A DNA stretch of 64,000 nucleotides from Escherichia phage vB_Eco_NicPhage: sequence record OY726582; one strand, written 5' to 3'. The notes below the pieces were generated by a model. That model saw nothing but the letters and a program-made list of their open reading frames with translations. It was not told where the DNA came from and did not search any database. Position 1 is the first letter of the stretch, and each line of letters starts with the position of its first letter. Positions 10,507-50,204 of the stretch are shown piece after piece. The position numbers and the translations under genes are program-made.

Positions 10507-11142
10507 ATGGCAACATACTACAGATTGTATATTACAACATTTGAAACATCCACCGGTATAAAGATTTATGGTGGTAAACACAAATCAGTTTACGAAGACC
10601 CTTCAAAAGACCCTTATACTGGGTCTGGTACCTTTATACGAAGGGCCAAAAGAAAATACGGTCCGTCTTGTATAAAAGAAATTATATGGTCTAAGCCATT
10701 TGAATCTAAAGCTCTAATGGACGAAGCTGAAGAGTTACTGGTAGATGAATTATCCATTTTAGAAAATTGCGCAAATCTTGTTAAAGGTGGTGCAGGCGGA
10801 AGGTCGTATATTAACCCAGAAGATAATCCATCTATAGGACAAAAACGTTCAGCCCAATCTAAAAAGAAAATGTCTGACGCCGCAAAATCAAGAAAATGGA
10901 CTGAAGAAGGGTTAAGAAAACGTAAAGAATCTACAGCAAGAATGTGGAAAGATTTCAAACATAGACATCCTGATTTTTCTGGTTCAAAAAATCCGGCAGC
11001 TCGAAAAGTTAGTGTAAATGGTAAAATATTTAACACCTGCAAAGAATGTGGTGAAGAATTTAATATCACATCAAGCGCGGTTATAGGCCGATGCAAAAAC
11101 AACAAACCTAAATGGGCAGGATGGAATTATGTCGACGTATAA
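10507..11142 (+). CDS. GIY-YIG family homing-endonuclease-like protein (Seg-like), inserted between genes 13 and 14
   Basis: N-terminal YRLYITTF...GIKIYGGKH...YTGSG resembles the GIY-YIG catalytic module; basic Lys/Arg-rich central region (NUMOD-like) and C-terminal Cys-containing segment (CKECGEE...GRCKN); no gene at this position in T4; 3' end overlaps gp14 start by 14 nt. Confidence 0.65.
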
Positions 11143-11893
11143 TTCAAATTTATTTGCAAAGTTAGAAAACCGAGAAGGCTATTCTAAAACTAATGAAACC
11201 GAGATTTTAAACAAATACGTGAACTTCAACAAATACGAAAATAGTCAAACCCTAGCTGATGTGTTAGTAGCAGAAAGCATACAGATGCGCGGTATTGAAT
11301 GTTTTTATGTTCCACGTGAATATGTTGCCGTGGACCTTATCTTTGGTGAGGACCTTAAAAATAAATTTACTAAAGCATGGAAATTTGCTGCATATCTGAA
11401 CTCTTTTGAAGGTTATGAAGGAGCGAAATCGTTCTTCAGCAACTTCGGAATGCAAGTTCAAGACGAAGTTACATTATCTATTAACCCAGGTCTTTTCAAA
11501 CACCAGGTCAACAATCAGGAGCCTAAGGAAGGTGATTTAATATACTTCCCAATGGACAACAGTTTGTTTGAGATTAACTGGGTTGAACCATATGACCCAT
11601 TCTATCAAGTAGGTAAAAATGCGATTCGTAAAATTACTGCAGGCAAGTTTATTTACTCTGGCGAAGAAATCAATCCGGTGCTTCAGAAAAATGAAGGTAT
11701 CAATATACCTGAATTTAGTGACTTGGAACTTAACCCTGTTAGAAATCTTGACGGTATCCATGACATTAATATCGATGAATATTCTGAAGTTGAGCAAATC
11801 AATTCAGAGGCAAGTGAATACGTTGAGCCGTATGTAGTAGTTAACAACCGTGGTAGACAAAATTCACCATTTGACGATGGGTTTATGAATTAA
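11129..11893 (+). CDS. 14: Neck protein gp14
   Basis: 254 aa (T4 256), syntenic, N-terminus ..NLFAKLEN.. recognised. Confidence 0.85.
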
Positions 11894-11945
11894 TAAATAG
11901 ATAAGATAAAGCAAACACCGGTCGAAAGGCCGGTTAGGAGAAATG

Positions 11946-12894
11946 ATGTTTGGTTATTTTTACAACTCGTCGTTCAGGCGATATATCACAATGATGGGCG
12001 ATTTGTTTTCAAATATCCAAGTTAACCGTCAATTGTCTACAGGCAATAAATTAATTAGAGTTCCTATTACGTATGCATCTAAAGAGCACTTTATGATGAA
12101 ACTTAATAAATGGACCTCTATAAACTCACAAGAAGATGTGGCTAAAGTCGAAACTATTCTACCACGTATAAATCTCCAAATGGTGGATTTCGTTTATAAC
12201 CCAACGTTTAAAACGAATATATTGAATAACTCTCTTTTGAGTAAATCGACTAAGGATATTGTAGACCAATACAACCCATCACCAATTAAAATGATTTTTG
12301 AACTGAGCATCTTTACTCGTTATGAAGATGATATGTTCCAAATCGTTGAGCAAATTATTCCATATTTTCAGCCGCATTTTAATACGACTATGATTGAGCA
12401 ATATGGGCAGGATATTCCATTTGAAAGGGATATTAAAGTCGTATGGATGGCAGCAGCAATGGATGAACAAATAGACGGTGATAATTTATCTCGTCGACGT
12501 TTAGAGTGGTCATTAACATTTGAAGTAAATGGATGGATGTATCCTCCGGTAGGCGCAGCTGAAGGCCTTATTAAAACGACTTATCTTGATTTTCATGCTA
12601 AACGGTGATAATTTATCTCGTCGACGTTTAGAGTGGTCATTAACATTTGAAGTAAATGGATGGATGTATCCTCCGGTAGGCGCAGCTGAAGGCCTTATTA
12701 AAACGACTTATCTTGATTTTCATGCTAATGAACGAGACCTTCAAACAGCCGCCAGTGTTTTTGAATCAGTTGATACAGAAATTAAACCGAGAGACGTTGA
12801 AGCACAAGATTGGAATGGTGAAGTTGAACAAACTTATACTCATGATATTCCAATCCCGTCTCCACCAACCCCTCCTGGTCCTAGAAAACAATAA
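11946..12894 (+). pseudogene. 15: Gene 15 (tail sheath stabiliser / tail completion protein) interrupted by a 127-bp tandem duplication; split into ORFs 11943..12608 and 12586..12894
   Basis: The two ORFs share the identical peptide DNLSRRRLEWSLTFEVNGWMYPPVGAAEGLIKTTYLDFHA; removing one 127-nt copy restores a single ORF of about 272 aa, the T4 gp15 length; the first ORF ends HAKR-stop two codons into the second copy. Confidence 0.75.
12475..12728 (+). repeat. Perfect direct tandem duplication, 2 x 127 bp (copy 1 12475-12601, copy 2 12602-12728), inside gene 15
   Basis: Read directly: acggtgataatttatctcgtcgacgtttagagtgg...cttgattttcatgctaa occurs twice back to back; 127 is not a multiple of 3. 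Confidence 0.9.
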
Positions 12895-19490: not shown

Positions 19491-19723
19491 TGGACGATTT
19501 AATTCAAGCTATTAAATCAAACGACCTCGTTGCTACTCGAAAGTTTTTTGAAAGTGCAATGGCAGAAAAAACGGTTCGTTTGATTGAAGCACGCAAAGCA
19601 GAAATCGCGTCTCAATTTTTGATTGAAGGCGAAGAACCTGAAGAAGAAGAAAAGAAAGCTTCGGAAGACGACGCTGATGAAGGCGATGACGACGAAGACG
19701 AAGATGATGAGGACGATGAATAA
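19490..19723 (+). CDS. 67: Prohead core protein gp67 with poly-acidic C-terminal tail
   Basis: 77 aa; C-terminus [27 protein letters not shown]; start overlaps gp20 stop; syntenic with T4 gene 67. Confidence 0.75.
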
Positions 19724-27763: not shown

Positions 27764-28432
27764 TTATTTTAATGTTACGAAAGAAGAATTACGAGTTTCA
27801 CGAATTAGAACTGATCCATCGCGATTAATATAATAAATTAAGCTAAATAATGTTTGGTGAGCAGAAGCATGCACAAAACTAGTTGGGCGAGATTTCCAAT
27901 CTGGGGTTTCGGCTATCCATTGATAAATCCACCAAGGAACAGTAACATATCCTGGGCCTTTGCCTAATTTAATGAGTGTAGGACTAAAATTTTCAGGCAG
28001 AACAAATTTTACTTCTTTATTTACCTCTGGCTCCGGCTCTTTTTCAGATTCAACAACCTGAGTAATTGCTTCTTCGAATTTATCATGGTCGAATTCTTTT
28101 TCTTGTTCGACAACTTCTAATACTTCAACTTGTTCTGTTGGAGAATCAAACAACAGAATAGCTTCTTCTTTAACTTCTTCGTTGGTGAAATTAACACCGT
28201 CCACATCATCTGCGGCAGTAATTAAATCGGTGATAGATAATCCATCGGTTTCAGGTAATGGTTCATCAGCCAGTGCGTTAAGAGCTTCTTCGATATCAAT
28301 AACAATATTATCGAATGATTTTGTTTTCTTAACACTAATGCCAAATTGTTCCGCATATTCAAACAGTTTAGCTTTGGCTTCCTTTTTATCAGAAAGAGCA
28401 CGTAACTCTTCAATATAGTCTTTATCGATCAT
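27764..28432 (-). CDS. inh: Inhibitor of prohead protease (Inh)-like acidic protein
   Basis: 222 aa (T4 Inh about 226), acidic, directly downstream of hoc as in T4; assignment is by position and length. Confidence 0.65.
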   Translation of the reverse strand: MIDKDYIEELRALSDKKEAKAKLFEYAEQFGISVKKTKSFDNIVIDIEEALNALADEPLPETDGLSITDLITAADDVDGVNFTNEEVKEEAILLFDSPTEQVEVLEVVEQEKEFDHDKFEEAITQVVESEKEPEPEVNKEVKFVLPENFSPTLIKLGKGPGYVTVPWWIYQWIAETPDWKSRPTSFVHASAHQTLFSLIYYINRDGSVLIRETRNSSFVTLK

Positions 28433-28445
28433 GGTATTTCCTCAT

Positions 28446-28453
28446 TATAAATA
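28446..28453 (+). promoter_or_regulatory. Late promoter TATAAATA upstream of the SegE-like gene
   Basis: Exact TATAAATA 17 nt upstream of the Met at 28470. Confidence 0.45.
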
Positions 28454-28469
28454 TAACTATATTTATTAC

Positions 28470-29213
28470 ATGGAAAAGAGTATGTATCACTTTGTTTATG
28501 AGACCGTAAATTTAATTAATGGTAAAAAGTACATTGGCAAACATTCTACAGAAAATTTAAATGATTCGTATCTAGGGTCAGGTGTTGCCTTAAATCGCGC
28601 TATCAAAAAATACGGAGAAGAATCATTTAAACGTTCAATAATTAAACAATTTGAAACTTCCGCTGAAGCTTTAGAATACGAAGCTCAGTTAGTAACAGAG
28701 GATTTGGTCAAATCTAACGAGTATTATAATATGCGCCAAGGCGGTGAAGGTGGAAGGTATAAGTACACCGAAGCTGATAAGACTAAAATGTCTAATAGTG
28801 CTAAAGAACGAATAAAGAGGCTTGGTCATAATCTTTTAGGAAAACACAGATCGGAAGAAACAAAAAGAAAACTATCTGAAACAAATAAACGTCGATACTC
28901 TGAAGACCCAACATGCCACGGGCGGTATGGTACAGGAAAGCCAAAGATTGATAAAATTAAAGGTCCTAAAAATCCTACAACTCTAAATAAAATTTGTGTT
29001 AACAACGGTAAAGAAAACAGATTTATATCAGCCGAGGACCCGATGCCTGAAGGATTTGTAAAAGGAATGGTCCAACTTAATAGAAAATCTAGAAAGGGCT
29101 GTGAAGTAAAACCTACGACCACCGGCAGAATATGGGTAAATAACGGGGCTATAAATAAATTAGTAAATCCGTTATCCATCCCAGATGGATATGTTAAAGG
29201 CCGTTTAAGGTAA
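28470..29213 (+). CDS. GIY-YIG homing endonuclease with NUMOD3-like repeats (SegE-like by position)
   Basis: YHFVYETVNLINGKKYIGKHS...YLGSG is a canonical GIY-YIG N-terminus; repeated GxxxSEETKxK modules (NUMOD3-like); start moved from ORF-track 28431 to in-frame Met at 28470 because a TATAAATA late promoter (28446-28453) lies inside the longer ORF. Confidence 0.8.
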   Translation: MEKSMYHFVYETVNLINGKKYIGKHSTENLNDSYLGSGVALNRAIKKYGEESFKRSIIKQFETSAEALEYEAQLVTEDLVKSNEYYNMRQGGEGGRYKYTEADKTKMSNSAKERIKRLGHNLLGKHRSEETKRKLSETNKRRYSEDPTCHGRYGTGKPKIDKIKGPKNPTTLNKICVNNGKENRFISAEDPMPEGFVKGMVQLNRKSRKGCEVKPTTTGRIWVNNGAINKLVNPLSIPDGYVKGRLR

Positions 29214-31472: not shown

Positions 31473-31885
31473 TATTGCCCCGCTTCAAATTCTCGCATAT
31501 CCTGGATATGTTTAAGTGCAAAACTACGAGACTTAACTGCGTCAAGTGCACCACTACAGAACTCAAGTAAAATTCCCCAGTATTGTAAAGTAGTCTCTAT
31601 TTTAAGCACATCTTTATCTGCAGCCAGGACAGTTTTCATTTCAGATTTCTCGTATCGGTCCATACTGAATTCATCACCGTCACCTCGTCCCGAGTAGTAG
31701 TCTAATCTTGCTTTTAGAGCAGTTTTCTTCTGAGTCTCTATACGCAACATTTCTTTACGAATAAATGAGTGCTTACGTAGCCATTTGCTGTATAACTTAA
31801 CATTATTCGCCGTCTCATATTGCAACTTTGTCATATCAATAGCTAAGTCTGCGTCTAACTCTTCCTGTAAATCTTCCAGCTTCAT
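31472..31885 (-). CDS. uvsY: Recombination mediator protein UvsY
   Basis: 137 aa, identical to T4 UvsY length; syntenic between uvsW and gene 25. Confidence 0.8.
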   Translation of the reverse strand: MKLEDLQEELDADLAIDMTKLQYETANNVKLYSKWLRKHSFIRKEMLRIETQKKTALKARLDYYSGRGDGDEFSMDRYEKSEMKTVLAADKDVLKIETTLQYWGILLEFCSGALDAVKSRSFALKHIQDMREFEAGQ

Positions 31886-31964
31886 AATATTCTCTCTTTA
31901 ACTAATAATCTCCCGGCTGTATCGGAAGGACCTAAAACCATTATACATAGGTTGCCTTGAAGCA

Positions 31965-48641: not shown

Positions 48642-49212
48642 AAAAGTTTCGGATTTGTTCCCAATTCAGAGAACGAAGATTATTACGAGAGTACTGAATT
48701 ACTTCAATACCGGCTTGTTTTAGAATGTCTGCCCAATTTTCAGGAGATCGGTCGTATAATTCTGCATATACAACCTTTTTAATACCTGACTGTGTAATAG
48801 CTTTAGTGCAATCAGGACACGGAGAAAGCGTCGTATATAACGTAGCACCTTCAATAGAATTACCTTTACGAGCTGCAAATAAAATTGCATTCAGTTCAGC
48901 ATGGATTTCATTATTAGCAGACCATGCACTATGAGCGGCCCGATGTTCTTTAGCCAAAACAAAATTATCCACCCGTCCAAATGCTGTAGTGCCTTCTTTA
49001 TGCCCAGCAACGATGACCGGGCTTGGTTTATTCTTCAACCAACCGTTTTCGGATGCATGTTCGCAACAGTTTGTACCACCTGAAGGAGAGCCATTATAAC
49101 CTGTAGAAATAATGCGTCCATCTTTTTCAATGACGGCACCAACTTTCCATGAACAACATTTTGATTCTTGAGAAATCAAATAAGCAATTTGAAGATATGT
49201 GCTAGCTTTCAT
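48631..49212 (-). CDS. cd: dCMP deaminase
   Basis: 193 aa, identical to T4 Cd length; zinc-binding motifs HAELNAI and PCPDC; N-terminus MKASTYLQIAYLISQESKCCSWKVGAVIEK. Confidence 0.9.
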   Translation of the reverse strand: MKASTYLQIAYLISQESKCCSWKVGAVIEKDGRIISTGYNGSPSGGTNCCEHASENGWLKNKPSPVIVAGHKEGTTAFGRVDNFVLAKEHRAAHSAWSANNEIHAELNAILFAARKGNSIEGATLYTTLSPCPDCTKAITQSGIKKVVYAELYDRSPENWADILKQAGIEVIQYSRNNLRSLNWEQIRNFCGE

Positions 49213-50204
49213 TATTGAACCTTATTAATATAAGTTAACAGCTCTTTAGTTTGTTCCCAACTGATGCACGCATCGGTAACGGAAACGCCATAGGACATAT
49301 TATCAGAAATTTTTTGATTTCCTTCATGTAGGAATGATTCTATCATAATTCCTTTGACCAAATCATTAGCTGCTAAATTTTTACCAATACCAATTTGATT
49401 GCTATAATGCCCAGCAGCGTTTGCATGGCTACAGTCAACCATTACATAATGATTCAGACCTACTGCACTTGCTTTGTTAGAAGCTTCTTGAATATCAGAA
49501 GAATGATAGTTCGGGCCGTTGGTCCCGCCACGCAATACGATATGCGTATTCTGATTACCTTCAGCTTCAACAATGCCTACAGTACCATCGACGTCCATAC
49601 CCATATACCGATGAGGCCTGGCGGCACTATACATCGCGTCTGTAGCTACTTTAATAGAACCATTGGTTGCGTTCTTGAAGCCTACGCACATCGGTAGACC
49701 TGAAGCAATTTCACGATGTGTCTGACTTTCAGTCGTACGGGCGCCAATAGCAACCCATGAGAAAATACCAGAAAGATACTTAATCGTGAATGGGTCTAAT
49801 ACTTCAGTTGCTAATGGAAGTCCCATACGTAGAAGTTTACGACACAATGTTCGTGCAACTATAAGACCGTGGTTCATATCAAAACTTCCGTCAAGATATG
49901 GATCATTTACAAGACCTTTCCAACCTACGGTAGTTCGAGGCTTTTCAAAATAAACGCGCATCACTAACAGAACATTAGGAAGACGAGTTTGAAGTTCAGC
50001 TAGACGTTTGCCGTATTCAACAGCAGCAATAGGGTCATGAATTGAACAAGGACCTACAACAATAAGTTTGCGTGGGTCTTCACCGTTCATAATCGAATTA
50101 ACTTGTTCGCGATGAGAAGCCACTTGTGATGCGTAAGCTTCCGACAAAGGAATAATCTCAGCCAGTTCTTTTGGAGAAATAAGTTTTCTGACGACAGGTA
50201 ACAT
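49212..50204 (-). CDS. 3-deoxy-D-arabino-heptulosonate-7-phosphate (DAHP) synthase, class I-alpha (AroF/AroG-like)
   Basis: 330 aa; full-length colinearity with E. coli AroF/AroG, including KLIVVGPCSIHD, VMRVYFEKPRTTVGWKGL, IGARTTESQTHRE, GFKN, ILRGG, VDCSHAN, ESFLHEGNQ, VTDACISWE; AAGGA Shine-Dalgarno 6 nt upstream; stop overlaps cd start (TAATG). Confidence 0.9.
   Translation of the reverse strand: MLPVVRKLISPKELAEIIPLSEAYASQVASHREQVNSIMNGEDPRKLIVVGPCSIHDPIAAVEYGKRLAELQTRLPNVLLVMRVYFEKPRTTVGWKGLVNDPYLDGSFDMNHGLIVARTLCRKLLRMGLPLATEVLDPFTIKYLSGIFSWVAIGARTTESQTHREIASGLPMCVGFKNATNGSIKVATDAMYSAARPHRYMGMDVDGTVGIVEAEGNQNTHIVLRGGTNGPNYHSSDIQEASNKASAVGLNHYVMVDCSHANAAGHYSNQIGIGKNLAANDLVKGIMIESFLHEGNQKISDNMSYGVSVTDACISWEQTKELLTYINKVQ

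Follow-up and report, generated by a model that had tools for sequence, protein, structure and literature searches.

A perfect 127-bp tandem duplication that splits gene 15 in the record of Escherichia phage vB_Eco_NicPhage is very probably an untrimmed assembler overlap

Gene 15 and the 127-bp repeat

In the sequence record of Escherichia phage vB_Eco_NicPhage (OY726582), the essential tail gene 15 is interrupted by a perfect tandem duplication and written as two fragments in different frames, which raises the question of whether the phage carries a broken structural gene or the record carries an error. We analysed a 64,000-nt stretch of this record (hereafter, the window). Self-comparison at an offset of 127 revealed that 12602-12728 is an exact repeat of 12475-12601 over 127 consecutive positions, and TRF analysis of the unit returned a period of 127, 2.0 copies, 100% matches and a score of 508. 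The unit begins with ACGGTGATAATTT and ends with TTTTCATGCTAA; the two copies meet between 12601 and 12602 (CATGCTAA before the junction, ACGGTGAT after it), where the sequence therefore reads from TTTTCATGCTAA directly into ACGGTGATAATTT. The bases flanking the repeat differ (G/A before, A/T after), and these mismatched flanks fix the unit at exactly 127 bp with a microhomology of 0 bp. The chance expectation of an exact repeat of this length is ~1e-72. It is the sole exact tandem duplication with a period of 15-1000 and the sole exact direct repeat of at least 40 nt in the 64-kb window. The features of the locus are as follows:

11129..11893, plus strand: gene 14 (neck protein), intact, 100% identity over its full length; upstream neighbour
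11946..12608, plus strand: gene 15 fragment 1, 100% identity to residues 1-218 of a relative's gp15; PF16724
12475..12601, plus strand: copy 1 of the 127-bp unit, gp15 codons ~177-219
12602..12728, plus strand: copy 2 of the 127-bp unit, identical to copy 1
12604..12894, plus strand: gene 15 fragment 2, in the +1 frame, matching residues 176-273 of a relative's gp15; PF16724
12904..13398, plus strand: gene 16 (small terminase), intact; downstream neighbour

Because 127 mod 3 = 1, gene 15 is frameshifted in the sequence, as any gene hit by a repeat of this length would appear to be. Fragment 1, for which an alternative ATG lies at 11943, continues after native residue 218 with K and R across the junction, is stopped by a TGA at 12606-12608, and encodes a product of 220 aa ending in ...YLDFHAKR. 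Fragment 2 repeats residues ~178-218, continues into the native C-terminal sheath-binding domain and stops at 12892-12894; its mechanical ORF extends from a TTG start at 12586 to 12894 (...DFHANERDL...PPGPRKQ). As written, the sequence contains no single ORF that includes the sheath-binding C-terminal domain. Such an ORF is present only after one 127-bp copy is removed, which yields 273 aa from MFGY. The original prediction had given the coordinates of the repeat, a frame that runs two codons into copy 2 before stopping, and a collapsed product of about 272 aa; self-comparison, TRF and the ORFs bore out each of these.

The collapsed protein was compared with T4 gp15 (272 aa; PDB 3J2M, 4HUD, 9MKB), and residues 1-271 were aligned with E=3.8e-146. 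The Pfam family PF16724 (T4-gp15_tss) was matched by fragment 1 at profile positions 1-209 of 245 (E=2e-86) and by fragment 2 at positions 168-242 of 245, and the overlap between the two matches corresponds to the duplicated segment. The synteny is also that of T4, with gp14 upstream and gp16/gp17 downstream. By sequence similarity and gene order, the split gene is unambiguously assigned as gene 15, predicted to encode the T4 gp15-type tail terminator and sheath stabiliser, in agreement with the identity first proposed for it. The collapsed length, the full-length similarity and the gp14-gp15-gp16 order are thus shared with T4, whereas the gene in the window lies in two frames, a split that no relative among the matches listed shows.

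The same gene cluster contains a 211-aa ORF (10507-11142, plus strand) between gp13 and gp14 that overlaps the start of gp14. It is present in both this genome and that of a relative, where it is called 'intron-associated endonuclease', and it scored 22.6 bits against the I-TevI DNA-binding domain PF20987, below the cut-off of 27. From its sequence, this ORF is a putative free-standing homing-endonuclease-like gene inside the neck gene cluster.

In T4, the C-terminal domain of gp15 (residues 209-272) binds gp18 (PMC12929629), and the lesion as written would remove nearly this whole domain, with a loss of ~55 residues. Homologues of the 55 lost residues were found in 1,051 phage records, ranging from Escherichia to Acinetobacter phages. 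Among the lost-domain matches listed, every one in an annotated record fell under an annotated CDS, and nearly all were named as tail-completion or sheath-stabiliser proteins. Because the lesion removes the gp18-binding domain, which is conserved in 1,051 phage records, a C-terminally truncated gp15 as the consensus of a propagating phage is implausible. The ORFs, the sheath-binding role of the domain and its conservation likewise support the earlier expectation that a loss of about 55 residues should be deleterious.

Quality of the window and searches for the junction

The window belongs to Mosigvirus (Straboviridae, T4-like) and is 98-99% identical to many E. coli phage records, with the best public match at 98.6-99.1% identity. 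When the coding sequences of relatives were projected onto it, 83 of 84 were full-length in one frame (counting gp7, which is cut by the window start), and gp15 was the sole broken one. The first 12.6 kb aligned to the closest relative, OR062945.1, with zero gaps; past this point, indels relative to the closest relatives were only compensating or confined to divergent or intergenic patches. A generally noisy assembly was rejected given the gap-free first 12.6 kb and the 83 of 84 intact CDSs. The sequence is a clean assembly with one very specific anomaly.

We also considered uvsY as a second frameshifted gene and rejected it. At position ~31897, the window has an A-run of A3 compared with A4 in OR062945.1, and this 1-nt difference lies just upstream of the conserved MKLEDLQ start, which we take to be the N-terminus of T4 UvsY. 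In the window, uvsY (minus strand, ~31475-31890) is unbroken, and the uvsY annotation of OR062945.1 (164 aa) appears to be over-extended by ~27 codons upstream of the likely true start.

Two other regions of the window differ from OR062945.1. A 260-aa ORF at 28431-29213 (plus strand), located between inh and uvsW, contains a SegE-type GIY-YIG endonuclease domain (PF19835, E=8.5e-07; PF01541), and the whole stretch of ~745 bp is missing from OR062945.1. Judged by its domain content, this ORF is probably a mobile seg-like homing endonuclease insertion. At 19667-19719, the acidic D/E run that ends a prohead core (PIP/gp67-like) gene comes from an imperfect tandem repeat of 21 nt (GACGACGATGACGAAGACGAT, 2.5 copies); shortly before this repeat, at 19651-19655, the window and OR062945.1 differ by a 3-nt indel. 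Variation of this kind looks unremarkable for an in-frame repeat.

To assess whether the duplication occurs elsewhere, 50,697 phage records were searched by megablast with the region and with a 90-nt probe spanning the junction. The region matched 651 phage records, and the best 40 of these 651 were all single-copy, spanning 924 bp (1051 minus 127) in two pieces. The junction probe gave no one-piece match among the 50,697 records. An exact scan of viral, metagenome and genome contig collections did not recover the junction 30-mer, and exact look-up of the 220- and 221-aa truncated products returned no entry on record. A 38-mer from inside the unit, with which a contig having both ends inside the repeat unit was sought, found no such contig and retrieved two independent environmental contigs only, both single-copy (one from IMG/VR and one metagenome contig of 170.9 kb that is 99.4-99.7% identical to the window). 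Among the public sequences searched, the duplication is private to the NicPhage sequence.

K-mer overlaps in Mosigvirus records

The length of the repeat, 127 bp, is the maximum k of SPAdes and its auto-selected top value, and it belongs to the SPAdes k series 21/33/55/77/99/127. A de Bruijn assembler gives a circular path as a linear contig in which the first and last k bases are identical. Such '127 bp artificial overlaps' have been reported for SPAdes (PMC5923482), and the genome of phage U136B was 'reopened to be syntenic' with a reference after its 'terminal repeats of 127 bp' had been cut away (PMC8104045). The Phage Annotation Guide warns that a contig can be longer than 100% of the genome and requires a check for duplicated regions (PMC8785237). 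The NicPhage repeat resembles these terminal overlaps in its length of 127, perfect identity, arbitrary position and 0 bp microhomology; it differs in that they lie at contig ends, whereas the NicPhage repeat is internal and requires one extra step, in which the ends are joined and the genome re-opened with the overlap left in.

Seven sister Mosigvirus records were examined for an exact prefix=suffix overlap within the 400 nt at either end. Four of the seven had one, with every non-zero value falling in the SPAdes k series:

OR062945.1: end overlap 99 bp; the closest relative of the window
OR062947.1: end overlap 99 bp
OR844765.1: end overlap 77 bp; SPAdes-style name NODE_1_length_170762_cov_13.97
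PQ511148.1: end overlap 127 bp; a 'complete genome' in which both ends carry annotated gene fragments
MK047718.1, MZ560701.1 and MZ234025.1: end overlap 0

The end overlaps of 77, 99, 99 and 127 bp are untrimmed assembler k-mer overlaps, and the stated lengths of these records are inflated by k. In silico joining of the PQ511148.1 ends produced a tandem duplication of 127 bp that has 0 bp microhomology and shifts the frame by +1; joining the ends of the other overlapping sisters gave duplications of 99 or 77 bp with a chance extension of 1-2 nt.

One of the records with no end overlap, MZ560701.1 (phage TU01, 'partial genome'), carries CDSs named rIIA at both 1-2214 and 168846-169046, and comparison of its ends found no shared 25-mer. 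The double rIIA may reflect a different end-handling problem or a mis-named rIIA.1-type gene.

An internal counterpart of the NicPhage repeat was found in Escherichia phage vB_EcoM_G53 (MK327943.1, 'complete genome'), which contains a perfect 55-bp tandem duplication with 0 bp microhomology at 133379-133488 of the record. This duplication frameshifts a DAHP-synthase-family gene (PF00793), for which the G53 annotation has only a misc_feature labelled 'similar to hypothetical protein'; the window encodes it unbroken on the minus strand at 49211-50204 (330 aa, PF00793). The G53 record opens with a 2214-nt CDS, the length of the rIIA CDS that opens MZ560701.1. G53 was assembled with SPAdes at '55kmer', and T4-like genomes, handled as circularly permuted, were then rearranged to published relatives (PMC6563267). 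Since the documented k of G53 equals the length of its internal duplication, the mechanism is demonstrated within the genus. The two phages, both Mosigvirus, each have a perfect tandem duplication that lies inside the record, shows 0 bp microhomology and frameshifts a gene intact in relatives; they differ in k (55 in G53, 127 in NicPhage), in the gene affected (DAHP synthase and gp15, respectively), and in that the assembly method is published for G53 only.

Origin of the duplication and its meaning for Mosigvirus records

Taken with the window, these records make it very probable that the 127-bp duplication is an untrimmed k-mer overlap that circularisation or rotation moved into the interior of the sequence. 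A circularly permuted T4-like genome would be assembled as a circular path that a de Bruijn assembler opens at an arbitrary position, and the contig from SPAdes run at its maximum k would have identical first and last 127 bp. The break would have fallen within gene 15, and the ends would have been joined with the overlap left in place, either when the contig was re-opened or rotated to a reference or at a later circularisation; the terminal overlap would thereby have become a perfect tandem duplication of 127 bp inside the sequence. The assembly of such genomes as circles is borne out by the Mosigvirus affiliation of the window and by the prefix=suffix overlaps in four of the seven sisters; for NicPhage itself, we infer both the assembly at k = 127 and the untrimmed joining or rotation. 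The original prediction had listed an assembly artefact, a defective or minority variant, and recoding as its options and had not given a mechanism for the first; the k-mer end overlap is added here. Its artefact option is strengthened by the identity of 127 with a SPAdes k, the private junction, the sister overlaps and G53, and its other two options are weakened by the 0 bp microhomology, the private junction, and the lack of a slippery site or ribosome-binding site.

A real 127-bp tandem duplication present at high frequency in the phage population, as a defective genome propagated by co-infection or as a tolerated truncation, is improbable, even though a faithfully assembled, very recent event would give an identical sequence and cannot be told from an artefact by sequence alone. 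Tandem duplications arise readily in T4 (PMC9391042, which cites Wu et al. 1991 and Kumagai et al. 1993), and the truncated product would keep the ring-forming core (PF16724 positions 1-209). However, the borders of T4 tandem amplifications typically carry microhomologies of 6-10 bp (range 2-10), one copy of which is kept per junction (PMC9391042), whereas the NicPhage repeat, although likewise a head-to-tail copy in a T-even-type genome, lacks such short 2-10 bp border repeats, having 0 bp. T4 duplications are moreover usually kilobase-scale, selected for benefit and unstable, whereas this one spans 127 bp and would knock out a structural gene. Its length coincides exactly with an assembler k, its junction is found in no other public genome searched, and a like structure is shown to be an artefact in sister records. 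With strong selection acting to keep gp15 intact, T4 recombination would soon collapse a 127-bp direct repeat. Some duplications do form in the absence of microhomology, and chance alone could give a length of 127, which we estimate at roughly one in a few hundred. We regard as decidedly improbable the specific case in which the duplication is physically in the stock, having arisen spontaneously and independently of microhomology, cutting gp15 just before its sheath-capping domain and matching the SPAdes k only by coincidence. If true, it would mean either that a viable tail, though perhaps a less stable one, needs no more of gp15 than the core ring, or that a defective genome is carried along with the wild type.

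Other forms of artefact, such as a long-read or hybrid mis-join, an error of polishing or manual editing, or scaffolding against a reference, are very unlikely. Long-read circular assemblies also leave end duplications, but errors of this kind give overlaps of variable length that are usually imperfect, and the exact 127, the perfect identity and the otherwise indel-free sequence point instead to a de Bruijn k-mer overlap. There is hardly any chance of a real duplication in which gp15 is still made, whether through +1/-2 ribosomal frameshifting close to the stop or through reconstitution of gp15 from two separately translated polypeptides. The ORFs share 42 duplicated residues and in principle encode the whole of gp15 between them; however, a frameshift product would hold a 42-residue internal duplication, and a free C-terminal domain could not be expected to tether the sheath to the gp15 ring, judging from the structure (PMC12929629). 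A search of the frame junction of gene 15 found no in-frame slippery heptamer of the form X XXY YYZ, and none of the candidate starts of fragment 2 (12586, 12595 and 12664) was preceded by a Shine-Dalgarno sequence, compared with GGAG, GAGG and AAGG for genes 15, 16 and 17, respectively. Among the matches listed, the relatives encode gp15 as one uninterrupted ORF, with no conserved frameshift arrangement. Rescue by recoding or by a split gene was rejected for want of a slippery site and a Shine-Dalgarno sequence.

The explanation by an untrimmed k-mer overlap gives the finding little biological weight, since gene 15 of the phage is almost certainly normal, with a single copy of the unit and an intact 273-aa product; its value is that of a curation flag. 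As it stands, the record misrepresents an essential structural gene, in two fragments or as a pseudogene, and overstates the genome length by 127 bp. Errors of this type are common in Mosigvirus, being present at the ends of four of the seven sampled sisters and as the internal 55-bp copy in G53. Microhomology-free perfect tandem duplications of 21, 33, 55, 77, 99 or 127 bp should be flagged automatically as assembler overlaps by a filter rule in genome scans (the counterpart k length for MEGAHIT is 141), and this flagging should precede any reading of such repeats as mutations, recoding or split genes.
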